From positions 9,418 through 73,417 of the forward strand of contig LNJC01000002.1 in NCBI GenBank assembly GCA_001587575.1: a stretch of DNA of 64,000 bases. Direction: 5' to 3'. The position numbers and the translations under genes were made by a program. Under the pieces are notes generated by a model. The model was given only the letters and a program-made list of their open reading frames with translations. It made no database searches and had not been told where the DNA came from. Of this stretch, positions 6,109-57,036 are shown in pieces. Numbering within the stretch: position 1 is the first letter of the stretch; each line of letters opens with the position of its first letter. This DNA is from Candidatus Methanofastidiosum methylothiophilum. GTDB lineage: Archaea; Methanobacteriota_B; Thermococci; Methanofastidiosales; Methanofastidiosaceae.

Positions 6109-6157
6109 ACTACTCGAATCCTATTTTTAGAATTATAAGCTTTGCACTGGCTCTTCA

Positions 6158-6211
6158 AACCAAAAATTTGGTACTGGTCCCTTAAACCAAAAATTTGGTA
6201 CTGGTCCTTTA
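6158..6211. repeat. Perfect-but-one 27-bp tandem direct repeat (2 copies), aaccaaaaatttggtactggtcc(c/t)tta
   Basis: Read directly from the sequence. Copy 1 is 6158-6184, copy 2 is 6185-6211, with a single mismatch. It sits ~50-100 bp upstream of the histidine-kinase start (6108). Confidence 0.9.
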
Positions 6212-6341
6212 ACTTCATTTGTTATTCCATTTTTCATTAAATAGGCCTTTATTAATTCATGTGTAGTTATATCCATAAAATCACCCACAAAACTTTTTTT
6301 AGCAGAATATATAAATTTAACTAAACATACTTGCGATTTTC

Positions 6342-14279: not shown

Positions 14280-15626
14280 TTAATATCTTAGATATTTCTG
14301 GAACTCCCAGTCGGTAACATACATTGAATATTCTTCCCAAACTTTTTTCTTGTGTTCAATGTATTTTGTGGATATGTGTTTACCTAATGAATCTCTTATC
14401 ACTTTGTCTTTTTCAAGTTCCTTTATAGCTTCACCTAGATTAGCGGGCAAAGTTTCTATTCCTCTTTCCTCTAGCTCTGCTAATGACAATTCGAATAAGT
14501 CATAGTCTACCGGCTCAGGTGGCTCGATTTGATTTTCAATTCCATCCATTCCTGCTTTTAACATTGCTGTAAATGCTAAGTAAGGATTACATGTTGGGTC
14601 AGGTGATCTAAATTCTATTCTCAATGCTTTTTCGTTAGTTGGATCGTATCCAGGTAATCTTACTAAAGCTGTTCTGTTTGCCCATCCCCATGCAATATAT
14701 ACTGGTGCTTCGTATCCTGGAACTAATCTCTTGTAAGAGTTTACGGATGGAGAACAAATAGCAGTAAGCGCTTTGGCATGTTTTAAAATTCCGCCTATGT
14801 ACCATCTACCTTTGTCAGATAAATTCTTTGTCTTTGGATCATAGAATAAGTTTCTTCCGTTTTGGAATACACTTTGGTGGCAGTGCATACCGTTCCCTGC
14901 TTGACCATAGAAGGGCTTCGGCATGTATGTAACTACAAGTCCTTCTTTAGCAGCTATGTTCTTTACGACCTGTTTGTATGTGATTACATCATCAGCTGCT
15001 TCAAGAGCGCTTTCTTTAAATCTGAAGTCAATTTCATGCTGCCCCGCTCCTACTTCGTGGTGAGTAATCTCACTTTTTACCCCCATCATTTGCATGTAGA
15101 GTCCAGCTTTGTTCCTTATTTCTTCTCCTAAGTCGAGAGGTGAGAAATCGGCATAACCTCCCGAATCATGTGGTACAAGTTTCCCATTTTCTTCTTTTAA
15201 TAAGTGGAATTCTATCTCTGGACCAACATAAAACTCCATTTTATCTTCTGCAAGCTTCTGTATTTCTTTTTTCAAAAGACTTCTTGGATCGCCCTCAAAA
15301 GGCTTTAATGTTGTTGGATAACATACATCACAAATTATTCTTGCTTCATCAAGCCAGGGAATTATTTTAAATGTATTAGGATCGGGCATCAATACACTAT
15401 CACTGTGGGATATGTCTGTAAATCCCTTAATAGAAGAACTGTCAAATCCCATTCCAGATTCAAATATAGAGTCTATTAGATCTACCGATGTTGAGAAGTT
15501 CTTGGGTATACCAAGCATGTCCACAAACTGCAATCTTATGTATTTTATGTTCTTTTCCTTAATTATTTTTTTTACCTGCTCTTTGTCCATTTTATTCCTC
15601 CAATAATATTTTTTATATTTACCCAT
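14280..15626 (-). CDS. glnA: Glutamine synthetase type I. The true start is possibly the internal Met (MDKEQV...) at ~15590.
   Basis: GS beta-grasp N-terminal domain and catalytic motifs (e.g. MPKPFYGQAGNGMHCHQS; NPYLAFTAMLKAGMDGI). Confidence 0.9.
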   Translation of the reverse strand: MGKYKKYYWRNKMDKEQVKKIIKEKNIKYIRLQFVDMLGIPKNFSTSVDLIDSIFESGMGFDSSSIKGFTDISHSDSVLMPDPNTFKIIPWLDEARIICDVCYPTTLKPFEGDPRSLLKKEIQKLAEDKMEFYVGPEIEFHLLKEENGKLVPHDSGGYADFSPLDLGEEIRNKAGLYMQMMGVKSEITHHEVGAGQHEIDFRFKESALEAADDVITYKQVVKNIAAKEGLVVTYMPKPFYGQAGNGMHCHQSVFQNGRNLFYDPKTKNLSDKGRWYIGGILKHAKALTAICSPSVNSYKRLVPGYEAPVYIAWGWANRTALVRLPGYDPTNEKALRIEFRSPDPTCNPYLAFTAMLKAGMDGIENQIEPPEPVDYDLFELSLAELEERGIETLPANLGEAIKELEKDKVIRDSLGKHISTKYIEHKKKVWEEYSMYVTDWEFQKYLRY

Positions 15627-15753
15627 TTGTCTAGGTATTTGATAGAAAAGAGAAGTATCATCTACTATTTAATACTTACTGTTTTATAATGGCTAATTTA
15701 GGTCTAATAAGGACTAAAAAAAAGAAAAAGTGGCCTAAAATAATCAAAAAAAA

Positions 15754-16356
15754 TTAGGTAATAAAGAGTAACTCGTCTCTCCAGTCATCCCGGATTCTTC
15801 CATTTTTAATGTTTAACATAGGCATGTAGTTGTGGAAGAATCTTATTGGATCTGAAAGTCTTATTGTTTGTACGTCTTCAATAGAGTCAGGTCCGTGGTT
15901 CTTCTTTAAAGAAGGAACGATGATTTTATTGAAGTTTTCGACGATGTCTTCGTCTCTTTCTCCTTCAAGAATCATTACAAGAGCAACCCTTCCATCAACT
16001 TCTGCAAGGAAAGATTGGTATATATGCTCTGTAAAGACGGTCCTTACGTTGTTTTCTTCATTGATTTCACGAATAAATTGAGTATAAGGTAGACCAAGTT
16101 TAAATTTTATTAGATAGAGATGTCTGGCATTTATTTTCCCAATACCCGATTTGTCTAGGTTAACATTTAGATAATAATGTATTATTCCCTCTTCTTCTAA
16201 TTTTTTCCTTTTCCTGTATACGGTTCTTACAGGAACTCTAGTTGCTTTGCTTATTTGATTATCGCTGCTTCTGGGGTTTCTTATTAAGGCTTTGATGATT
16301 AACTTTTCTTGTTCATCTATAGTTCTTCCCCTTAGAATACATATATCTTTTACCAT
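15754..16356 (-). CDS. Winged-HTH transcriptional regulator (Lrp/AsnC-like N-terminal domain)
   Basis: N-terminal EQEKLIIKALIRNPRSSDNQISKATRVPVRTVYRKRKKLEEEGII fits the AsnC-type HTH. It is divergent from glyA and sits next to glnA. Confidence 0.5.
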   Translation of the reverse strand: MVKDICILRGRTIDEQEKLIIKALIRNPRSSDNQISKATRVPVRTVYRKRKKLEEEGIIHYYLNVNLDKSGIGKINARHLYLIKFKLGLPYTQFIREINEENNVRTVFTEHIYQSFLAEVDGRVALVMILEGERDEDIVENFNKIIVPSLKKNHGPDSIEDVQTIRLSDPIRFFHNYMPMLNIKNGRIRDDWRDELLFIT

Positions 16357-23419: not shown

Positions 23420-24502
23420 ATGAACAAATTTCCTAGAGAAAAGGATATTTCAGGCTGCTCTATATTCGGATTAATTAACACTGACGGAGAAAAAGTTAGT
23501 GGCAGTGTTATCACAGACGCAATTTCTGTCATGCACGATAGGGCAAATGGCCTTGGTGGAGGATTTTCTGGTTATGGAATATATCCAGATTATCCAGATG
23601 ATTACGCTTTTCATTTATTCTTTGACTCTGTCAAGGCAAAAGAAGAAACTGAAGAGTTAATTAATAAACACTTTTTAATTGAATATGATGAAAAAATAAG
23701 AACTGATAATTCAGTTAATCTTCCTAATAAACCATTGTTATGGAGATATTTTGTCAAAAATAGGAATATTCTGTCCAAAGATTCTGAAAGAGAAGAAACA
23801 TTCAAAGCTGTTATGGACATCAATAACAACATTGAAGGCGCATATGTAATTTCAAGCGGAAAAAATATGGGCGTGTTTAAAGGCGTTGGATACCCTGAAG
23901 ATATCAGTAAATTCTATCGTCTTGAGGACTATAGCGGTTACATATGGACCGCCCATGGCAGATTCCCCACCAATACTCCTGGATGGTGGGGAGGAGCACA
24001 TCCTTTTGGATTGCTTGATTGGACTATAGTCCATAATGGCGAGATATCCTCTTATGATACTAACAGGAGATATCTCGAGATGTACGGTTACAGATGCAAT
24101 CTTGTAACAGATACCGAAGTAATAACTTATCTTTTTGATTTTTTAGTTAGAAAAAATAATCTTCCTCTTCCATTAGCCTCGAAAATACTTGCAAGCCCAA
24201 TGTGGGCCGACATCGATAGAATGGAAGAAAAAAAGAGAGAGCTTCTAAAAGCATTGAGAATGACCTATGCTGGTGCATTACTCACAGGACCGTTTTCTGT
24301 CATCTTAGGATTTGAAAATGGGCTAATGGGTCTTGGAGATAGATTAAAACTCAGGCCACTTCTTGTAGGTAAAAATGACAATACAGTATATATTTCAAGT
24401 GAAGAATGCGCAATAAGAAAAATTTGTCCTGATCTTGATTCTGTTTATAGGCCAAAAGGTGGAGAACCTGCATTATTTATGTTGGATGGTAAATATGTCT
24501 AA
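23420..24502 (+). CDS. Archaeal-type glutamate synthase, glutamine amidotransferase (class II) domain subunit
   Basis: N-terminal Cys nucleophile context (GCSIFGLIN) and GATase-2 fold. It is a separate gene, as in methanogen split GOGAT. Confidence 0.75.
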   Translation: MNKFPREKDISGCSIFGLINTDGEKVSGSVITDAISVMHDRANGLGGGFSGYGIYPDYPDDYAFHLFFDSVKAKEETEELINKHFLIEYDEKIRTDNSVNLPNKPLLWRYFVKNRNILSKDSEREETFKAVMDINNNIEGAYVISSGKNMGVFKGVGYPEDISKFYRLEDYSGYIWTAHGRFPTNTPGWWGGAHPFGLLDWTIVHNGEISSYDTNRRYLEMYGYRCNLVTDTEVITYLFDFLVRKNNLPLPLASKILASPMWADIDRMEEKKRELLKALRMTYAGALLTGPFSVILGFENGLMGLGDRLKLRPLLVGKNDNTVYISSEECAIRKICPDLDSVYRPKGGEPALFMLDGKYV

Positions 24503-26003
24503 TATTATTCCTGAATTCAATGTCGATAAAAATGAAGATAGATGCATAAAATGCAAAGTTTGCGTAAGGCAGTGCTCAGAAGGGGTCTTTAAATACTTTG
24601 ATGAATTTGATTTAATCCGCATTTATAACGATAAATGTATTGGGTGTCATCGGTGTGAAATGATGTGCCCAACAGATGCTTTAACAATTACTAAGAATAC
24701 AGCACTTTACAAAGAAAATTCTCACTGGAGTTCTTACACTATTAATAGTATAAAAAAACAGGCCGAAACTGGAGGAATGATTCTTACTGGCAGCGGCAAT
24801 GACAAGGCATATGTTTCTTACTGGGACAAAATGCTACTTGATGCTTCTCAGGTAACTAATCCACCAATAGATCCATTAAGAGAGCCTATGGAATTAAGGA
24901 CTTATTTGGGTAAAAAACCTGAAAAAGTAATCCTAAAGGAAGAAAATGGAGATATATCGCTTGAAACTAAACTCGCACCACAAATTAAACTTGAAACTCC
25001 AATCATGTTTTCAGCAATGTCATATGGATCTATAAGCCTTAATGCATGTGAATCTCTTGCATCTGCCGCTTCAAAACTTGGTACTTTTTATAATACTGGA
25101 GAAGGAGGCCTTCATAAAAAACTTTACAAATATGGAAAAAACACAATTGGACAAGTTGCTTCCGGCAGGTTTGGTGTCGATACAGAATATCTAGATACAT
25201 GTGCAGCAATTGAAATAAAAATAGGTCAAGGTGCAAAACCTGGTATTGGAGGGCATCTTCCTGGAGAAAAAGTTACAGTAGAAATATCTGAAACAAGAAT
25301 GATACCTTCAGGCACTGATGCTATATCGCCTGCGCCTCACCATGATATATATTCAATTGAAGATTTAAAACAATTAATATGTTTGATTAAGGAAGCCACT
25401 AATTATGAAAAGCCTGTTTTCGTTAAGATAGCTGCAGTACATAATTCTGCCGCAATAGCATCAGGAATTGTCAGGGCAGGTGCAGACGTTATAGTAATTG
25501 ATGGATTTAGAGGGGGTACAGGTGCAGCACCTTCAGTTATTCGTGACAACACAGGCATGCCAATTGAAATTGCTCTTGCAGTTATAGATCAAAGATTGAG
25601 AGATGAAAGTATCAGAAATGAAGTTTCAATAGTTGCCGCAGGCGGAATTAGATCAAGTGCAGATGCTGTTAAAGCAATGGCATTAGGGGCAGATGCCGTA
25701 TACATCGCCACTGCAGCATTAATCGCAATGGGATGCACATTATGTCAAAAATGTTACAAAGGAAAATGTAACTGGGGCCTTACAACTCAAGATCCAGTCT
25801 TAACAAGAAGATTGAATCCTGCAATTGGGTCTGAAAAATTGACAAATCTTGTCACAAGTTGGAATCTAGAAATAAAGGAGATTCTTGGAAGCATGGGAAT
25901 TAATGCGATAGAAGCTCTTAGAGGAAACAGACTCAGATTGAGAGGAATAGGACTTACAGAACTAGAATCTAAAATATTGGGCATAGAGCACGCGGGGATG
26001 TAA
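24495..26003 (+). CDS. Archaeal-type glutamate synthase, FMN-binding central domain subunit with N-terminal 2x[4Fe-4S] motif
   Basis: CIKCKVCVRQC and CIGCHRCEMMCP motifs, then a GltB FMN domain (GEGG...; GGTGAAP; AAGGIRS). I moved the start to the ATG at 24495, which overlaps the upstream stop. Confidence 0.75.
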   Translation: MSNIIPEFNVDKNEDRCIKCKVCVRQCSEGVFKYFDEFDLIRIYNDKCIGCHRCEMMCPTDALTITKNTALYKENSHWSSYTINSIKKQAETGGMILTGSGNDKAYVSYWDKMLLDASQVTNPPIDPLREPMELRTYLGKKPEKVILKEENGDISLETKLAPQIKLETPIMFSAMSYGSISLNACESLASAASKLGTFYNTGEGGLHKKLYKYGKNTIGQVASGRFGVDTEYLDTCAAIEIKIGQGAKPGIGGHLPGEKVTVEISETRMIPSGTDAISPAPHHDIYSIEDLKQLICLIKEATNYEKPVFVKIAAVHNSAAIASGIVRAGADVIVIDGFRGGTGAAPSVIRDNTGMPIEIALAVIDQRLRDESIRNEVSIVAAGGIRSSADAVKAMALGADAVYIATAALIAMGCTLCQKCYKGKCNWGLTTQDPVLTRRLNPAIGSEKLTNLVTSWNLEIKEILGSMGINAIEALRGNRLRLRGIGLTELESKILGIEHAGM

Positions 26004-26005
26004 TC

Positions 26006-26434
26006 ATGAAAAGAAGAATTTTTTGCGACGAGGATTTTTGTATTGGATGTAGACTTTGTGAAGTTCATTGTACTGTTAAACATTCTAAATCAGGAGACAT
26101 TATTCTGGCATATAAGTTTGAGAATGACAAAGAACCCTCAAGAATGACATTCGAACAAAAAGAGTATATATGCGGTTCAATTGTTTGCATGAATTGCAAG
26201 GATCCGCTTTGTATTAAAGCATGCTCTATGGGGGCAATAAAAATAGAGGATGGAACAGTTATACTTGACAATGAAAGATGCGTTGGATGTTGGATGTGCG
26301 TTATGGTCTGCCCATTTGGTGCGATAAAGAGAGGAGACAATAAGGCTTTCAAATGCGATCATTGTCACACTGATGAAATTCCGGTATGCGTTCTCAACTG
26401 TCCAAACAAAGCATTGAAGTATGAGGTAGATTAG
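26006..26434 (+). CDS. 4Fe-4S ferredoxin-domain protein (GOGAT-associated)
   Basis: 142 aa with several CxxCxxCxxxCP-type motifs (CIGCRLCEVHC; CVGCWMCVMVCP; CDHCH...CVLNCP). Confidence 0.7.
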   Translation: MKRRIFCDEDFCIGCRLCEVHCTVKHSKSGDIILAYKFENDKEPSRMTFEQKEYICGSIVCMNCKDPLCIKACSMGAIKIEDGTVILDNERCVGCWMCVMVCPFGAIKRGDNKAFKCDHCHTDEIPVCVLNCPNKALKYEVD

Positions 26435-27691
26435 ATGAGATACGTCATCATAGGTAACGGTGCAGCAGCAATCGGAGCTGTTGAGGGCATAAGAAGCAAT
26501 GATAATGAAAGTGAAATTATATTGATCTCTAAAGAAGATTATAATTCTTATTCCAAACCCCAATTGTATAAAATGCTAAACCAGGATAATATAGAGGGTA
26601 TACTCTATAGAAACAAGGAATTTTATAGCGACAATAATGTATCCACTATATTTGGAAAAAATTTAAAATCTGTTGACTTTAACAAAAAAATTTTGTCATT
26701 AGACGATGAGAATATTAAATACGATAAATTGCTTATTGCAACTGGAGCCAAAGCAAATGTTCCCCAAATAAAAGGATTTGATGGGCAAATTTATTCTTTT
26801 ACAAACATTGAGGAAGCTCTTTCATTAAAACAATCTCTTTCAAATAAAAATAAAATTGCAGTTCTTGGCGGAGGCCTAATTGGAGTCAAGTTGTCTGAAT
26901 ATCTTATTAAAATGGGTAAAGAAGTTTTTCTTATAGTTAGTTCTAAGGGAGTTCTAAGTTCTCTTGGTGATGAGAAGATTTCTGAGATACTGAATAATGA
27001 AATTATGGAGAATGGAATTAATTTGCTTCTCTCAAGTAAAGTTCTAAGCGCCAAGAAAGAAGGCTCAAAAATAGAACTTAAACTCGACAAAGATAAAATA
27101 ACTTGTGATGCAATAGTATCCTGCAAAGGAGTAAGTCCTGAAGTTTCTCCATTTGAGAAAACAGAACTCGAAATTAATAGGGGAATCAAAGTTGACGATC
27201 ATATGAGAACTAATATTGAAGATGTATTTGCTGCAGGAGATGTAACTGAAGTTTATAACTATCTTGAAGATAGTTATTGCAATATTCCAATTCTTCCAAA
27301 CGCATACAGTGGAGGGCATTGTGCAGGAATTAATATGTCTGGTGGTGAAAGCAAGATAGATACTGTTTATCCAATGAACTCTCTTCAAATCTTCAATGTA
27401 CAGATAATTACAATGGGATTGTTAAATTCAACTGAAAAAGATGAAGTTCTATCTTTTTTGGATTCAGAAAAGAAAGTTTATAGAAAACTTGTTATTAGAA
27501 ATGGGAAATTGATTGGTGCAGCACTTCTTGGAGATATTGATCGAGCAGGTATACTAAATAATATTATCCGAAATAACTTAGATATTTCTTCAGTTAAGGA
27601 AGAATTATTATATAATAAAATTAATTTTTACGTTCTCCCAAAAGATATGAGAGAAGACATAGTAAAATCATACACCGAGGTAATTAAATGA
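26435..27691 (+). CDS. FAD/NAD(P)-binding pyridine nucleotide-disulfide oxidoreductase family protein (probable electron-input subunit for GOGAT)
   Basis: Two Rossmann dinucleotide motifs (VIIGNGAAAIGA; AVLGGGLIGVKLSE) and a GD motif (AAGDV). Confidence 0.7.
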   Translation: MRYVIIGNGAAAIGAVEGIRSNDNESEIILISKEDYNSYSKPQLYKMLNQDNIEGILYRNKEFYSDNNVSTIFGKNLKSVDFNKKILSLDDENIKYDKLLIATGAKANVPQIKGFDGQIYSFTNIEEALSLKQSLSNKNKIAVLGGGLIGVKLSEYLIKMGKEVFLIVSSKGVLSSLGDEKISEILNNEIMENGINLLLSSKVLSAKKEGSKIELKLDKDKITCDAIVSCKGVSPEVSPFEKTELEINRGIKVDDHMRTNIEDVFAAGDVTEVYNYLEDSYCNIPILPNAYSGGHCAGINMSGGESKIDTVYPMNSLQIFNVQIITMGLLNSTEKDEVLSFLDSEKKVYRKLVIRNGKLIGAALLGDIDRAGILNNIIRNNLDISSVKEELLYNKINFYVLPKDMREDIVKSYTEVIK

Positions 27692-28410
27692 TTCTTAATT
27701 GTAAGGGACTAAACCACACTGAAATAAACAAGTCAATACGCAAAGCAATACAAAATGGTGAAAAAGAAATAGTGATGAACAATGTAAATGGGCAGGGATA
27801 TCTATTTGCAGGAGTTAAGAATGGGATAAAAGCAATAATAAATGGCGTGCCTGGAAATGATCTTGGTGGTATGATGGACGGCCCAAGTTTATTTGTAAAT
27901 GCAAATATTCAAGATTGTGTTGGTAATACAATGAACAATGGTAAGATCGTTGTTCATGGGGACGCAGGAGATATACTAGGTTACGCTATGAGGGGTGGAA
28001 AGATATTTGTCAAGGGAAAAGTTGGCTACAGATGTGGGATCCACATGAAGGCATTTGGGGAGAAGATACCTGTTATTGTCATAGGGGAAGACGCAGGTGA
28101 CTTTCTTGGGGAGTATATGGCCTCAGGCATAATAGTTGTTCTATGTAAGAATAAATCTACACTTGATAGCAATTACTTAGGCGTTGGAATGCACGGAGGT
28201 GCAATATATATTAGGGGAAATATTGAAGAAAATAATCTAGGTAAAGGTGTTGCAATTTCTTCACTTGATGATTGGGATAAAAATTTTCTAACAAATATCT
28301 TAGATGAATACTCAACAGATATGAACTCTAAGGAGAAGTACGATTTAAATTCATTTGTAAAACTTAGTCCTTTGAATTCAAGACCGTTCCAAAGGCTGTA
28401 TAGCTATTGA
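27688..28410 (+). CDS. Archaeal-type glutamate synthase, C-terminal GXGXG-domain subunit
   Basis: Repeated G-x-G-x-G beta-helix motifs (NGQGYLFAG; VHGDAGDILGYAMRGG; VIGEDAGDFLGEYMASG). Confidence 0.7.
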   Translation: MILNCKGLNHTEINKSIRKAIQNGEKEIVMNNVNGQGYLFAGVKNGIKAIINGVPGNDLGGMMDGPSLFVNANIQDCVGNTMNNGKIVVHGDAGDILGYAMRGGKIFVKGKVGYRCGIHMKAFGEKIPVIVIGEDAGDFLGEYMASGIIVVLCKNKSTLDSNYLGVGMHGGAIYIRGNIEENNLGKGVAISSLDDWDKNFLTNILDEYSTDMNSKEKYDLNSFVKLSPLNSRPFQRLYSY

Positions 28411-28444: not shown

Positions 28445-29311
28445 ATGACGATGAAAAAAATATTAATTATTTTTGGATTGATAGTCTTAATAGCATTAGC
28501 ACCTATGTGCTCAACCCCAGGTTCAAGTCAACAACAAACACAAACATCAACTACTACTCAGCAAACCAGTACAACTTCAGGATCAGAGACTTCAAGTAAG
28601 GAAGAAGTTCTAACAAATGAAAAAAATTCTTTAAATGCTAATTCCTATAGGTATTATGCTTTAACTTTGACAAAAGGGAGCAAAGTGAAATTTTCTTATG
28701 AAACCCTAGATAAGGACAATTTTGATGTATATATATTAACAAGCACACAACATAATTATCTGGTTATGAATAACATTAGTAACACTAAGAAGAATAATCA
28801 ATACTTGAGATTTTACTCTGGCCCTAAATCAGAATTCGAATATACTTTTCCGAACGATGGCTTATATTATTTTATAGTCCACAATACAAACAATTTCCAA
28901 GTGCAGTACTATTATTCCGCTATACTTTCTTCCGGCGAAAAATTACAGAAATATCAGTACATTATTTCCGAAGGAACCAATGTCTATTTTAGTAAAGATG
29001 GATGGAGATCTTATGGAACTTACCTTCAGAAAGGGGAAGTTGTAAATATTTACTATAAAGTTAGACAGAACGACTACCGCAATTTATATGCCAGAATGTA
29101 TGTGCTTGATAGTACTGGATACAAGAGTTTTACATTGTCTCCTGAAGATTATTCAGGCAAGATATACCTTAACTCAACTAATGAAAGAGATCGAGATTAC
29201 GAGCAATTAAAATGGACCGCTCCAGAAAAAGGATATTATTACTTTGTATTTAGAAATGTTGATTCGCCTGAAGGATTAAGACTCGACTACAAAATATACA
29301 AACAATATTAA
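28445..29311 (+). CDS. Secreted/lipoprotein with S/T/Q-rich linker and two ~100-aa internal repeat domains; function unknown
   Basis: Signal peptide MTMKKILIIFGLIVLIALAPMCS, with Cys after the h-region consistent with a lipobox. A low-complexity QQQTQTSTTTQQTSTTSGSETSS linker follows. Two repeated modules each end in a ...GLYYFIVHN / ...GYYYFVFRN motif. Confidence 0.5.
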   Translation: MTMKKILIIFGLIVLIALAPMCSTPGSSQQQTQTSTTTQQTSTTSGSETSSKEEVLTNEKNSLNANSYRYYALTLTKGSKVKFSYETLDKDNFDVYILTSTQHNYLVMNNISNTKKNNQYLRFYSGPKSEFEYTFPNDGLYYFIVHNTNNFQVQYYYSAILSSGEKLQKYQYIISEGTNVYFSKDGWRSYGTYLQKGEVVNIYYKVRQNDYRNLYARMYVLDSTGYKSFTLSPEDYSGKIYLNSTNERDRDYEQLKWTAPEKGYYYFVFRNVDSPEGLRLDYKIYKQY

Positions 29312-29335
29312 TTTTTATTTATTTTTTCTTTTTCT
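29312..29335 (+). terminator. Oligo-T tract (archaeal-type intrinsic terminator candidate) after the lipoprotein gene
   Basis: tttttatttattttttctttttcttt immediately follows the stop codon. Confidence 0.4.
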
Positions 29336-29377
29336 TTGCAATAATTTTTTATGCATATATTTATAAGATTATTGCAA
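29336..29377. promoter_or_regulatory. Inverted repeat TTGCAATAAT-N22-ATTATTGCAA upstream of the 29402 ORF; candidate operator
   Basis: Read directly from the sequence. Perfect 10-bp arms, with a spacer containing ATGCATATAT, 25 bp upstream of the ATG at 29402. Confidence 0.4.
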
Positions 29378-29401
29378 TTACTTTAAATCCCGGCGAAATA
29401 T

Positions 29402-30556
29402 ATGAGTCTGATATCAAGGATTTCTAGTTATCTTGATACGTTAAAGTATAGTGTAAATCCCAATAAATTAGAGGATAGTGGATACTTTCTTAGCACATAT
29501 CTAAAATTAAAGAAGGATTATGAAGAATTAATATCAATTAGGCGAAAAATAGAATTCTTAGGATATCAAAATCCATATTTTGTGATTAAGGGAATAAAAG
29601 ACGCTCAAGATCCATATTTTAGGAAAAGAGCAATGGAAAAGAAAATTTGCTTTGATAATATCCAGCATGCGATTGCAGCGCACAGAGTTGCCATAGGTCA
29701 GTTAATAGATGCCATGGGATTTGAAAAAGAAGGAGTAATATATACCGGGCACGAAGCAATAAAATTTATGGAAGAAGGTGGAGAGGGAAAATTCATTTTT
29801 AGTCCTGATGGCGTATATCGGTTAGAAATACTAAGATATCTTTCTTTTTCAGGAGAATATATGAAGACTCTTTTCTCTTTAAATAAAGAAGAGAGAGAAA
29901 ACTATAGAAAGATAATGGACATGCTCGGGGACAAATCAAAGAGCAAATCATCAACAAAAAAGAGAATTCCTCAAGAATATGGAATGATGGGACCAAAAGA
30001 ATACTCCCCATTCAAAAAAGATGCTTCTCAATATAAACGTGATTTTTATGATGAAACTATTGATCTGGGCAGACCTCCAATATATGATAAACACATACGA
30101 AAAGTTTTATCGATTGCATATGCTCCATTTGGAATTGATTCTATTCGTGAAGATATTGCCCTCTTCTACCTGAAAAAAACATATATGGAAAGAAAGATAT
30201 ACGGAGGACCTTTCCCAACAATTGATCCAGAACCAAACGAATCACTTTTAGGCAGATTCTATAAGACTGTCTTATTAAAAGAAGAAATGATGAATACTCT
30301 AAGAGACATGAATTTAAAAGAAAAGAATAGTTTAGTTGCAGCTATTTCTTATTATTTAGTTTCTGAAGATTATGATAAAACATTGCTATTTTTCTCAATA
30401 GATAATAATGAATTTGAATCGGCTTTGATAAGAGCAGGAAATTATGGAGTAATCCCCAAGGAGAGTAAGCATCTTCTTGAAAGAGTGGTGAAGAGTTCTG
30501 AGAAAAAAGACATAACAAAGAAATTTTTACAAGAACTAAAGGGGGCTCAAGATTGA
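29402..30556 (+). CDS. Hypothetical protein (384 aa), no recognisable domain
   Basis: Long ORF with protein-like composition. It is translationally coupled (4-nt overlap) to the downstream HTH-containing ORF. Confidence 0.4.
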   Translation: MSLISRISSYLDTLKYSVNPNKLEDSGYFLSTYLKLKKDYEELISIRRKIEFLGYQNPYFVIKGIKDAQDPYFRKRAMEKKICFDNIQHAIAAHRVAIGQLIDAMGFEKEGVIYTGHEAIKFMEEGGEGKFIFSPDGVYRLEILRYLSFSGEYMKTLFSLNKEERENYRKIMDMLGDKSKSKSSTKKRIPQEYGMMGPKEYSPFKKDASQYKRDFYDETIDLGRPPIYDKHIRKVLSIAYAPFGIDSIREDIALFYLKKTYMERKIYGGPFPTIDPEPNESLLGRFYKTVLLKEEMMNTLRDMNLKEKNSLVAAISYYLVSEDYDKTLLFFSIDNNEFESALIRAGNYGVIPKESKHLLERVVKSSEKKDITKKFLQELKGAQD

Positions 30557-30948
30557 AAAAGATAATTGCAAAGAATAAAAGAGATCTAATTAAAAAATTA
30601 AGGGCTGATCTCTCCAATAAAGATGAGAAAATTTATATTAATATGAGGCCATCAGTTGACATTATGGTTGAAGTTTTAGAACATGCGCCAAATGTGAAAT
30701 ATATTCTATGTCCAAAAAGTCTCTATTCTTTGACTTCTGTTAGAGTCAAAAAAGCATTGGAACGTGTTGGAGTACTCCTTGTTCCTTTTGGTGAGGGCGC
30801 AGGAAGGCCAAACAAATATGATGACGAAACTGTAAGTAAATTAAAAAAAATGTATGAATTGGGCGTTCCTGTAAAGGAGATTTCAAAAAGTTTAAAGATA
30901 CCTCTTAGGACAGTTTACTACATTGCAAATGAAGAAGAAATTAATTAG
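30553..30948 (+). CDS. Hypothetical protein with C-terminal helix-turn-helix-like segment
   Basis: 131 aa. The C-terminus (ETVSKLKKMYELGVPVKEISKSLKIPLRTVYYI) resembles small HTH DNA-binding domains. Confidence 0.4.
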   Translation: MKKIIAKNKRDLIKKLRADLSNKDEKIYINMRPSVDIMVEVLEHAPNVKYILCPKSLYSLTSVRVKKALERVGVLLVPFGEGAGRPNKYDDETVSKLKKMYELGVPVKEISKSLKIPLRTVYYIANEEEIN

Positions 30949-32007
30949 TTATTCTAAATATTTTGAGTAGACTGTATTCTCCTTTAAGAATACAAAATAT
31001 GTGTCATCGACTATATTTATTATTTTAAGTGGAATTTCATCTTTCTTGATTTCTTCTTTTTTTAGGATATCAAAGTAATAGTCAAGTTTTAGGGCATACT
31101 CTTTTCCAGTAAGGATATCCCATAAAATGGCATAATAATAGTTACCGTTTCTTTTAAACTGCTTAACCCAGTCACTCCCTTCTGAAAAATTTTTTCTTGT
31201 AAATGTACTTGCATTGCCTTCTGGAGAGTATATAAAAAAAACTGTGTCAAAGACGTACCAACCTTCATTTCCAGAATAACCAACTGCAATAACATCCTCA
31301 TTGATTAGTTCTAGACAAAGTCCACCATCTTCCCAGTTATCGTTGTCAAAATAATCCACCCAAATAAGTTCAAGATCCTTTGTTAATTTGCACACAAACA
31401 TATCAAAGTTTTTATCTTTTGACTCCCCAGCGATATAGAAATTACCTTCATAATCCTCTATGATTTGGTAAGGTCTTTCATAGGGGCCAATGTCTAGTAT
31501 TTTGCTTGAGATTATACTTCCATTACGGTCAATCTTTACAATAAAACTATCTGATTCTCTCTTGTATGTTGAGTACCCGACAACAGTAACTTCCTGATTA
31601 TCATTTACGGTAAAAGATGAAAAAGCATCCATATCGGAAAATTTAATTTTGACTTCCCATCTTTTACTGAGGCTTGATGTTAGTTTTATTAGATATTTAT
31701 CTCCATCTTTTGAAAGCCCTAATAAGTAAGTATTTGAAAAATTGTCATTTAATATATTTTGAATTTTGAAATCTTCAAGTATCTGCTCTCTTAAGAATTG
31801 GCCGTTATTAGATTTAATAACAAAAGAATTGTTGCTATCTTTAATATTACCTGCAAGATAAATACTGTTTATATGAGGATCAAAGGCTATATCTTTCAGA
31901 ATGTGATCTTCCTCTAAGCTATACAAAACAGCGTCTTCGGATGAAAGAGGGAAAAAATTTGAAAAGACTAGCATAAAAAAAATAAAAATAGAAATTATTT
32001 CTCTCAT
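30949..32007 (-). CDS. Secreted hypothetical protein (predicted N-terminal signal peptide; repetitive beta-rich composition)
   Basis: N-terminal MREIISIFIFFMLVFSNFFPLSSE. The protein is rich in Y/W/D/G/N, with repeated ...Y-x-G... segments suggesting a beta-propeller-like fold. Confidence 0.4.
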   Translation of the reverse strand: MREIISIFIFFMLVFSNFFPLSSEDAVLYSLEEDHILKDIAFDPHINSIYLAGNIKDSNNSFVIKSNNGQFLREQILEDFKIQNILNDNFSNTYLLGLSKDGDKYLIKLTSSLSKRWEVKIKFSDMDAFSSFTVNDNQEVTVVGYSTYKRESDSFIVKIDRNGSIISSKILDIGPYERPYQIIEDYEGNFYIAGESKDKNFDMFVCKLTKDLELIWVDYFDNDNWEDGGLCLELINEDVIAVGYSGNEGWYVFDTVFFIYSPEGNASTFTRKNFSEGSDWVKQFKRNGNYYYAILWDILTGKEYALKLDYYFDILKKEEIKKDEIPLKIINIVDDTYFVFLKENTVYSKYLE

Positions 32008-32045: not shown

Positions 32046-32576
32046 TTAATTAGATTCTGTAGGATCAGTAACTTTGAAATCCTTATTTTTTAAATAATAA
32101 TCCATTAAATAACCAATTGCTATGAATAAAGGCACAGTAATAATGGCCCTTGCAAGGGTAAATTCTATCCCCAGATATCCAGTTTCAATTGTTAGCATCG
32201 GTATTTTGAGAGATGAAAAACATCCGAGAAATATGAATATATTTTTTACAGAAGCACCCTTTTTATAAAGTATGTAAACTATCGGGAAAGCTCCATAAAG
32301 AGGCCCCGCTTGAAACATTGAGAATATGACTGAGAGCAAAGTACCCTTTAAACCAGACTCGGGCCCCATATACTTTTCAAATTTCTTTTTAGGTATCCAT
32401 GCATCAAGTAAACCCACCAAAACAAAGACTATAGGTATAAACGAGATCATTTCAATAAACATATCTAAAAATGTCTTCGATGCCTTAATCCCAAATGCAA
32501 AGCTATAGATATATGAAAGAATTCCAAAAATAACGAAAAGTAAAATGAATCCATATTCTTTAATATATTTTTTCAC
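32046..32576 (-). CDS. Integral membrane protein, putative permease subunit (split COG0701/DUF318-like)
   Basis: 176 aa with ~5 predicted TM helices. It overlaps the upstream 160-aa membrane ORF by 4 nt. Confidence 0.35.
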   Translation of the reverse strand: MKKYIKEYGFILLFVIFGILSYIYSFAFGIKASKTFLDMFIEMISFIPIVFVLVGLLDAWIPKKKFEKYMGPESGLKGTLLSVIFSMFQAGPLYGAFPIVYILYKKGASVKNIFIFLGCFSSLKIPMLTIETGYLGIEFTLARAIITVPLFIAIGYLMDYYLKNKDFKVTDPTESN

Positions 32577-33055
32577 ATTATCGCCCCTATCAATAATCCT
32601 ATAATAATGGCAGCAAAGAAATTGAGTACATTTCTTATCAACGCAACCTTTTTTCCTAAATATTTACTTTCAAGAGGATAGGTCACAACGCCCACCATAA
32701 GTAAGGTTGTTATAAAAGTAGCAATCACCATATAAGAAGCCCCTCTCTTCAAGAGTTCTGAAGCTATAGGGTAAACTATAAATGCAGGTATCAATGTAAC
32801 TGAACCTATTATTGCCGAAAGACCCACACCAAAAAAACCAGAGTCCCCACCTAGGTATTGCTCAATCATTTCTGGCGGAACTAGAACTAAGATTATGCTT
32901 GCTATTATCATAATGTTAACAAAAGGAGAGGATAGGCCTTTGAATATTTTTATTCCTTTATTGACTCCCTGTTTTGTTTTTTCTTTATCAAAATAATAAG
33001 ATATGGAAACAATTGCAATACCTGCTATCCATAATAGAATTATATTTGGAAACAT
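32573..33055 (-). CDS. Integral membrane protein, putative permease subunit (partner of 32046..32576)
   Basis: 160 aa with ~5 TM helices. It is translationally coupled to the downstream membrane ORF. Confidence 0.35.
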   Translation of the reverse strand: MFPNIILLWIAGIAIVSISYYFDKEKTKQGVNKGIKIFKGLSSPFVNIMIIASIILVLVPPEMIEQYLGGDSGFFGVGLSAIIGSVTLIPAFIVYPIASELLKRGASYMVIATFITTLLMVGVVTYPLESKYLGKKVALIRNVLNFFAAIIIGLLIGAIM

Positions 33056-56048: not shown

Positions 56049-57036
56049 AATAATCTACCTCTTCTTCAAAATAATTGAATAAGATCTCTTGGATATTATT
56101 CTTCAAAGCGTCAATATTAGCGCCTTCTTGGGCGGATATTTCTATACCCTTAATATTTTCTTTAAAGCCCCACTCTTTTAAGTCTGCTTTATTTAAAACT
56201 TTTATAAAAGGAATACCTATAAACCTATCAGATATTTCATTGTACAAATTCATTTGGTCTTCCATACTATAACCACAGGATTCAGTTGGGTCAAAAACAA
56301 ATACTATTAATTTTGCTAGATACTTTAATGCAGATATAGCCTGTAGTTCAATAGGGTTTCTATAACTAAGCTCTCTGTCTAGAAGGCCAGGAGTATCTAC
56401 AATCTGTATCTTTCTTTTATTATACTCAAAAGAGGAAACATTTATCCCCTTTGTAGTAAATGGATAAGAATTGATTTCAGGCTCAGAATTTGTAAGAGCC
56501 TTTAGTAGTGAAGATTTTCCTACATTTGGAAATCCTGCAATTACAATCGTGTATAAATCAGGATTTATTGAAGGAAGATTTTTTAGCTTCTCCCTTGCGT
56601 TATTCAAGAATTTTATATTTTTTTCTACCTGTTTTAATATGGATATATATCTACCATAGCACTGTTTTCTTAGAAATGAAGCATCCTGGGGAGAACTTGC
56701 TCTCCTGATATTTTTTATATATTCTATCTTAACTGAGTTAATCGTATTTATTGCAAACGAAAGAGCGCCGAGATTATGTCTCAATTTATCTATGTCTGCA
56801 ATTATATCTATTAATTCTCTTGTGAAAGGGGGCAATCTATCAAAAGAGGGATATCTGTCTACAACCTTGAAAAGTGATTCTGCTAAAGTCTCTCCTGCAA
56901 CTGTAACTCTTATTGATTCTTTCTCTTTGACAATCTCATTAATATTTTTCTTACTGGAAAGGGCTTTTTTCTTAGCATTTCTAAAGGCCTTGTCCACTAT
57001 TTCATCTATGTCTATACGGGGTATTTCTTTGAACAT
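56029..57036 (-). CDS. Nog1-family GTP-binding protein
   Basis: G1 IAGFPNVGKSS, G3 DTPGLLD and G4 NKAD motifs, plus the Nog1-like N-terminal domain. Confidence 0.7.
   Translation of the reverse strand: MFKEIPRIDIDEIVDKAFRNAKKKALSSKKNINEIVKEKESIRVTVAGETLAESLFKVVDRYPSFDRLPPFTRELIDIIADIDKLRHNLGALSFAINTINSVKIEYIKNIRRASSPQDASFLRKQCYGRYISILKQVEKNIKFLNNAREKLKNLPSINPDLYTIVIAGFPNVGKSSLLKALTNSEPEINSYPFTTKGINVSSFEYNKRKIQIVDTPGLLDRELSYRNPIELQAISALKYLAKLIVFVFDPTESCGYSMEDQMNLYNEISDRFIGIPFIKVLNKADLKEWGFKENIKGIEISAQEGANIDALKNNIQEILFNYFEEEVDYFEKDRN

Follow-up and report, generated by a model that had tools for sequence, protein, structure and literature searches.

A conserved archaeal gene pair encoding a DUF530 protein and a DUF1699_N/helix-turn-helix protein, and its possible connection with topoisomerase VI

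The DNA considered here is a 64-kb stretch (hereafter the window) from Candidatus Methanofastidiosum methylothiophilum, and our attention is directed to a run of four open reading frames in it (ORF1 to ORF4; table 1), the second and third of which make up a gene pair that is old and widely conserved in archaea. An earlier note on the same DNA had described the four ORFs, an oligo-T tract, a 10-bp inverted repeat and an overlap between ORF2 and ORF3, and all of these features are indeed in place. When compared with a related genome, ORF1 to ORF4 diverge mostly at third codon positions, and they therefore represent real coding genes. ORF4, which is convergent with ORF3 so that the stop codons of the two abut, evolves the fastest, its amino acid identity to the counterpart in one related genome being 64% as opposed to 86-92% for ORF1, ORF2 and ORF3. 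The four genes had also been described as having no assignable function; their functions are indeed unassigned, but ORF2 falls into a catalogued protein family, DUF530, and ORF3 likewise combines catalogued domains, HTH_7 and, in all probability, DUF1699_N.

Table 1. Genes and sequence features of the four-gene stretch (positions are those of the window).
Feature	Position	Strand	Description
ORF1, 288 aa	28445-29311	+	Secreted, lipoprotein-like; genus-specific neighbour, outside the conserved pair
T-rich tract	29312-29335	+	Candidate terminator of the archaeal oligo-T type, read from sequence; T-rich in all relatives
Inverted repeat, left arm TTGCAATAAT	29336-29345	+	Conserved 8-bp core TTGCAATA
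TATA-box-like TTTATAAG	29360-29367	+	7-nt core TTATAAG invariant in 11 genomes
Inverted repeat, right arm ATTATTGCAA	29368-29377	+	Abuts the TATA box; candidate operator
GC-rich block AATCCCGGCGA	29386-29396	+	No variation among the 11 related genomes; coincides with the predicted start site (near 29388-29391) or a short leader
ORF2, 384 aa	29402-30556	+	DUF530 (PF04409) protein, short form
Shine-Dalgarno-like AAGGGGG	30539-30545	+	Within the 3' end of ORF2, 7 nt ahead of the ORF3 start codon
ORF3, 131 aa	30553-30948	+	Probable DUF1699_N domain and HTH_7; TTG start overlaps the ORF2 stop
ORF4, 352 aa	30949-32007	-	Acidic, secreted or anchored; SBBP-like propeller repeats; genus-specific

The assignment of ORF2 to the family DUF530 (PF04409) in the Pfam database is clear (105.6 bits, E 2.9e-30, compared with a cut-off of 27 bits), and the same domain is carried by its database homologues. 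ORF2 itself is 100% identical to a protein recorded as hypothetical in Candidatus Methanofastidiosum methylothiophilum, a lineage of uncultured methanogens. The conserved residues G151, R165, Y240, D251, R264, P272, K293 and G349 are invariant across 33 diverse DUF530 members. ORF2 nevertheless represents a short form of the family, with 384 aa against the 521 positions of the profile, and differs from the DUF530 proteins of about 550 aa found in Hydrothermarchaeota and Methanothermobacter by the absence of two insertions and of the CxC...CxxC cysteines of a Zn ribbon. According to our alignment, these cysteines are missing from ORF2 and from all other Methanofastidiosum forms; they are used here as a marker of the short subfamily and are not a Pfam criterion, and the long forms bear the label 'Zn-finger domain-containing protein' at the Joint Genome Institute (JGI). 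The AlphaFold2 (AF2) model of ORF2 (predicted local distance difference test score, pLDDT, 77.7; predicted template modelling score, pTM, 0.76) is helical: helices 26-52 and 71-104 form a long hairpin, positions 105-133 make up a small beta unit, residues 179-223 are a basic disordered segment, and the C-terminal domain is again helical. The DUF530 family has neither an assigned function nor a solved fold.

ORF3 does possess the C-terminal helix-turn-helix (HTH) motif attributed to it by the earlier note, as it scores 25.9 bits against HTH_7 (PF02796), i.e. above the cut-off of 23.8 bits, and the matching region is modelled as three helices preceded by an arm. In the structural model of the whole protein (pLDDT 84.5) a four-stranded parallel alpha/beta domain (residues 1-80) is followed by a flexible arm and by the C-terminal three-helix HTH. 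The score of ORF3 against DUF1699 (PF08004), 26.4 bits, lies below the cut-off of 33.4 bits; the same family is matched by all 18 aligned relatives of ORF3 with E <= 0.01 (the best value being 3.5e-9), and PF28505 (DUF1699_N) is recorded on ORF3 homologues with 85-97% identity. The orthologues in Pyrococcus, Methanothermobacter and Hydrothermarchaeota are named 'DUF1699 family protein' by NCBI, the family being uncharacterised. It is also a small family, since ORF3, when compared with 1.84 billion representative proteins, matched only 100 of them at E <= 0.001, with named members coming from Pyrococcus, Methanothermobacter, Methanobacterium, Hydrothermarchaeota, Diapherotrites and Methanomethylicia. 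The family members from Methanobacteriales (L041:6001-6465, P0089 and P0091) have a lineage-specific layout, in which a shortened N-terminal domain precedes two to four HTH repeats in tandem, the proteins being 154-288 aa long.

Among solved structures, the best sequence match of the ORF3 HTH is a CRISPR-repeat-binding HTH (PDB 2lvs, E 2.4e-8), and matches were also obtained to the HTHs of gamma-delta, Tn3, Hin, Tc3 and IstA. The CRISPR-repeat-binding proteins Cbp1 and Cbp2 thus share an HTH with ORF3, but the Cbp2 chain is matched in two HTH repeats, no match reaches the DUF1699_N region of ORF3, and the score of ORF3 with the NCBIfam model of Cbp1 is 15 bits, the cut-off being 140. By both sequence and structure, the C-terminal domain of the Hin, gamma-delta and Tn3 resolvases resembles that of ORF3 in being a three-helix HTH that follows a G-R-P arm, whereas the serine-recombinase catalytic domain of these enzymes has a different counterpart in ORF3, the 80-aa four-stranded alpha/beta unit. 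We considered ORF3 as a serine recombinase and rejected this identification, the N-terminal domain having no invariant Ser/Arg and failing to superpose on the resolvase catalytic domain. The only residues invariant across 30 diverse members of the ORF3 family are G84, R85, P86 and P117, which suggests that DNA binding of the Hin type is the conserved function; ORF3 would bind DNA through the HTH together with the GRP motif serving as a minor-groove arm. Because the small alpha/beta domain contains no invariant catalytic residues, it may be an interaction or oligomerisation module. Another HTH protein of the window, a 200-aa HTH_24 (Lrp/AsnC-like) regulator encoded after a glutamine synthetase gene (14280-16356, minus strand), matches a hidden Markov model (HMM) of the ORF3 family through its HTH at a weak, chance level.

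ORF3 begins with a TTG codon that overlaps the TGA stop codon of ORF2 (TTGA), and this overlap is kept, along with the Shine-Dalgarno-like sequence, in 11 related genomes, one of which has GTGA with AAGGAGG. Both the conservation and the GTGA/AAGGAGG variant argue for TTG as the true start of ORF3 and support translational coupling of the two genes, which, as judged from sequence comparison, can be taken as established. The association of the two genes reaches far beyond the genus. When genomes were scanned with an alignment of DUF530 proteins, 38 loci were obtained, 11 from Methanofastidiosum and 27 of the Hydrothermarchaeota type, and an ORF3 homologue directly follows the DUF530 gene in all 11 of the former and in 18 of the latter, with four of the nine remaining Hydrothermarchaeota-type loci ending at a contig edge. 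The ORF3 homologues of the Hydrothermarchaeota type were recovered at 33-39% identity, and the gaps between the paired genes range from -4 to +48 nt. Adjacent genes for both proteins were likewise found in Pyrococcus sp. ST04, in Methanothermobacter wolfeii and in one divergent member of Methanofastidiosia. In a single case, that of a 578-aa protein (P0069), DUF530 is fused to the DUF1699_N/HTH part (Pfam; hhalign 98.8%). The suggestion of the earlier note that the genes for the 384-aa and 131-aa proteins are coupled, with one of the two products carrying a DNA-binding motif, is thereby borne out, their orthologues being adjacent across several archaeal lineages rather than scattered. The fused gene (L040:5001-6737) is directly followed by a gene for a 1091-aa protein without a Pfam match and then by Orc1/Cdc6, and upstream of it are genes for a NOG1-like GTPase, RtcA and a MutS-like protein. 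A gene for a NOG1-like GTPase, 46% identical to the one beside the fused gene, is also present in our window (56179-56934, minus strand).

Comparison of 11 genomes shows strong conservation over the 90 nt 5' of ORF2, with conspicuous blocks corresponding to TTGCAATA, TTATAAGATTATTGCAATTA and AATCCCGGCGA. The 10-bp inverted repeat is perfect and unique within the window (0 matches in 100 shuffles), and its arms bracket the TATA-like TTTATAAG. Both arms are kept in the 11 genomes, with the spacer between them being variable, and the conserved form of the palindrome can be written as TTGCAATA-N26-TATTGCAA; the TATA box and the right arm together make up TTATAAGATTATTGCAATTA, an invariant block of 20 nt. 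A site between the TATA box and the transcription start is the classic position for an archaeal repressor, and the right arm, lying between the TATA box and the predicted start, is thus a candidate operator. It is plausible that the palindrome around the TATA box serves as a site for autorepression by ORF3. In other lineages the DNA preceding the HTH gene was also searched for palindromes and yielded nothing consistent, so autoregulation is envisaged here for Methanofastidiosum only. The block AATCCCGGCGA stands out as GC-rich in an otherwise AT-rich stretch between the promoter and the start codon of ORF2.

The genomic context of the pair in other archaea points to a possible link with topoisomerase VI (Topo VI). 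In Pyrococcus the gene order is Rio1 - KH/Pno1 - Top6B - Top6A - DUF530 - HTH, with gaps of less than 10 nt, and in four other lineages (L043, L044, L045 and L047, one of them a Diapherotrites metagenome-assembled genome) Top6B-Top6A are succeeded immediately by the HTH gene, DUF530 being absent. We considered a 231-aa and a 440-aa gene located 3' of the HTH gene in L043 as possible diverged forms of DUF530, and the comparison was negative. To broaden the sample, metagenome contigs were scanned with a back-translated GRPxKY...[ILVMF]PxRTxY pattern, giving 111 loci, four of which proved to be chance matches without a family member, and neighbouring genes were classified with home-made HMMs. The resulting set comprises 144 loci with the HTH gene, falling into 29 clusters (lineages) at 70% identity. 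Top6A is followed by DUF530-HTH in 29 loci (4 clusters) and by the HTH gene alone in 27 loci (10 clusters); the pair is preceded by another gene in 36 loci (5 clusters) and has its upstream side cut in 29 (7 clusters); and an HTH gene without DUF530 is preceded by some other gene in nine loci (6 clusters) and has its upstream side cut in 14 (6 clusters). Altogether, the HTH gene or the DUF530-HTH pair comes directly after Top6A in 14 of the 29 clusters and Top6 genes occur within the locus in 16, with neither Top6 nor DUF530 being present in six. The full string aIF1A-Rio1-KH-Top6B-Top6A-DUF530-HTH was encountered in at least eight loci.

The string Rio1 - KH/Pno1 - Top6B - Top6A, often headed by aIF1A, is in itself strongly conserved in many archaeal lineages (L030, L039, L044, L081, L105, L106, L112 and others) and joins genes of ribosome biogenesis and translation to those of Topo VI. 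A different arrangement, devoid of Rio and KH, is seen in L050, L054 and L093 (and L042), where the order is MBL-fold protein - Tsr3-like - PcrB - (DUF530) - shortened HTH protein; the HTH protein has 97-107 aa with a truncated N-terminal domain, and Top6B-Top6A lie 0.35-1.5 kb downstream. In the literature that we searched on the gene neighbourhoods of Topo VI there was no earlier description of the link to HTH/DUF530 or of the Rio1-KH-Top6BA string, and searches for DUF530, DUF1699, PF04409 and PF08004 found no relevant paper.

With these observations in mind, we lean, with some reservation, towards the view that ORF2 and ORF3 constitute an old housekeeping two-protein unit in archaea that binds DNA in a sequence-specific manner and acts with or near Topo VI. 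According to this scenario, ORF3 would contact DNA through its Hin-type HTH and GRP arm, the DUF530 protein would be a helical scaffold partner binding ORF3, and the complex may act on the chromosome together with Topo VI or in the same process, by way of targeting, loading or modulation. The pair of Methanofastidiosum has left the Top6 string and is now under its own promoter with the palindrome-bracketed TATA box. A more specific version, which is rather unlikely to be correct, is that the DUF1699_N-HTH protein, together with DUF530 where present, may be a subunit of archaeal Topo VI that has so far escaped recognition and has an accessory or targeting role. If true, this would explain why the HTH gene directly follows Top6B-Top6A in many archaeal lineages, and the subunit would be a functional counterpart of the plant proteins RHL1 and BIN4 or of the partner proteins of Spo11. 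RHL1 and BIN4 are accessory proteins of plant Topo VI that have been reported as absent from archaea (PMC11302465). The parallel drawn here is one of analogy, in that a small protein that binds DNA would in both cases accompany a type IIB topoisomerase; for the archaeal protein it is derived from gene order, and no homology is claimed.

Several facts weigh against a connection of the pair with Topo VI. The evidence for it is gene order alone, and because the same string houses aIF1A, Rio1 and KH/Pno1, which are unrelated to DNA topology, a shared position need not mean a shared function. In Hydrothermarchaeota the pair comes after KH with no Top6 genes in between (the order in Hydrothermarchaeum being TyrRS - aIF1A - Rio1 - KH - DUF530 - HTH), and in Methanothermobacter and Methanofastidiosum it adjoins neither Top6 nor KH; indeed, Top6, Rio and KH genes, as well as aIF1A, are absent from the 64-kb window. 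Furthermore, the motif pattern used for the metagenome scan favours some lineages, the fusion of DUF530 with the HTH protein was found in one lineage only, the promoter palindrome has no consistent equivalent in the other lineages, and comparison of DUF530 with PDB structures gave no relative beyond generic helical hairpins, which leaves its role unconstrained.

The main rival explanation is that the two proteins are a plain transcription-factor pair, with ORF3 as a repressor or activator and DUF530 as its co-regulator or sensor, which would control their own operon and perhaps also the string of information-processing genes, the position after Top6A being a matter of operon hitch-hiking that would imply no mechanistic tie to Topo VI. 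We regard this as credible, though clearly less probable than a unit acting with or near Topo VI, because the string carries unrelated genes of translation and ribosome biogenesis and in the absence of Top6 the pair is still found with KH. The HTH combined with a conserved palindrome over the promoter, the retention of the pair beside Rio-KH where Top6 is missing, its solitary position in Methanofastidiosum and Methanothermobacter, and the spacer of 50-150 nt that separates Top6A from the HTH gene in the HTH-only lineages and leaves room for a promoter of its own are all consistent with a plain regulator. Ordinary regulators, however, seldom hold one genomic position across classes, and the second, independent arrangement without Rio and KH still places the HTH gene near Top6BA. 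Palindromes common to the other lineages were not found, and a coiled-coil partner of 384-550 aa, sometimes fused to the HTH protein, would be unusual for a simple repressor.

The same neighbourhoods might be taken to indicate a function in ribosome biogenesis or translation, given that Rio1-KH-aIF1A, Tsr3, NOG1 and the aminoacyl-tRNA synthetases MetRS and TyrRS occur near the pair in one lineage or another. We consider this improbable, for the conserved core of ORF3 is an HTH of the Hin/resolvase type with a minor-groove arm, i.e. one that binds double-stranded DNA, and the immediate upstream neighbour of the HTH gene, or of the DUF530-HTH pair, is in 14 lineages Top6A and not a translation gene. 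Even less can be said for the proposals of the earlier note that the four genes form a cell-surface/regulatory module or that the coupled pair is a toxin-antitoxin-like unit, or for a related interpretation as a remnant of a defence system or mobile element; these are largely refuted, and we deem them very improbable. HTH_7 is typical of recombinases and transposases, and the resolvase-type HTH of ORF3, along with the tight gene packing, the ORF2/ORF3 overlap and a four-gene order that is constant within the genus, speaks for such ideas. Yet the N-terminal domain of ORF3 bears no sign of a recombinase (see above), PADLOC gave no match for ORF2 and only noise for ORF3, and the flanking genes are of a housekeeping nature in every lineage examined, having to do with translation, ribosome biogenesis, replication or Topo VI. 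No tRNA genes, no Rfam families at the gathering score and no repeat array were detected in the 64-kb window, in which the sole tandem repeats are a 27-nt unit present 2.1 times at 6157-6212 and a 16-nt unit present 2.2 times at 56775-56811.

What the analysis offers in the case of a Topo VI connection is a concrete and testable candidate for a missing archaeal partner or regulator, namely a small DNA-binding protein repeatedly encoded right after Top6A, frequently next to a DUF530 partner with which it may also be fused. Even if this link fails, two orphan Pfam families, DUF530 and DUF1699, are tied together as one unit in a housekeeping setting, for which sequence-specific binding of DNA is the likely activity. 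As regards the annotation of the window, the ideas of a surface/regulatory module and of a toxin-antitoxin module can be removed.

The secreted neighbours ORF1 and ORF4 stand apart from the pair. The order GXGXG gene - ORF1 - ORF2 - ORF3 - ORF4 - (permeases) - MBL gene is maintained across 29 loci of Methanofastidiosum, and synteny within the genus extends to the flanking glutamate-synthase and MBL genes, but no homologue of ORF1 or ORF4 was found in the 129 loci from outside Methanofastidiosum in which the HTH gene occurs, alone or as part of the pair. The four-gene order is therefore a matter of ordinary genus-level synteny and provides no evidence of a module; ORF1 and ORF4 are genus-specific surface proteins unrelated to the pair. 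ORF1 is, moreover, dispensable even within Methanofastidiosum, as it is truncated in one locus (L004) and absent from another (L009), in which the DUF530 promoter is located directly 3' of the GXGXG gene.

ORF1 had been described as a lipoprotein with an S/T/Q linker and two repeat domains. Its N-terminal hydrophobic signal peptide, a cysteine (Cys22) that is invariant among homologues and the S/T/Q-rich linker were all recovered, and a lipoprotein identity is plausible from the sequence. The fit to a lipobox is, however, imperfect: the canonical motif at the end of the signal peptide is [LVI][ASTVI][GAS]C (PMC12462473), and the residues preceding the cysteine of ORF1 and its homologues are (A/S/V)(A/P)M, with positions -1 and -3 falling outside it. 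The internal beta-rich repeats of about 100 aa are also weakly supported, being alike at 24% identity over 97 aa (E 2e-4). A weak Pfam match to PPC was also obtained. The identity of ORF1 among relatives ranges from 44 to 88%. ORF4, previously thought to combine a signal peptide with beta-propeller-like repeats, has a signal-like N-terminus and a repeated motif corresponding to SBBP (PF06739), with three copies found by a regular expression and a fourth by eye, but the Pfam score (19.1 bits) is just under the cut-off of 20.5 bits. No sequence relatives of ORF1 or ORF4 were found in PDB.

Further downstream, on the minus strand, two adjoining half-size permease genes of the ArsP_1 type (32046-33055) encode proteins of 176 and 160 aa with about 28% mutual identity and overlap each other by 4 nt; this pair is absent from the corresponding loci L003, L006, L007, L009 and L010 and partial in L005. 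Directly upstream of ORF1, a split glutamate-synthase-like cluster of the archaeal type occupies positions 24435-28410 (plus strand) and comprises genes for a protein with Fer4 and Glu_synthase FMN domains, a 4Fe-4S protein, a Pyr_redox_2 oxidoreductase and a GXGXG-domain protein.

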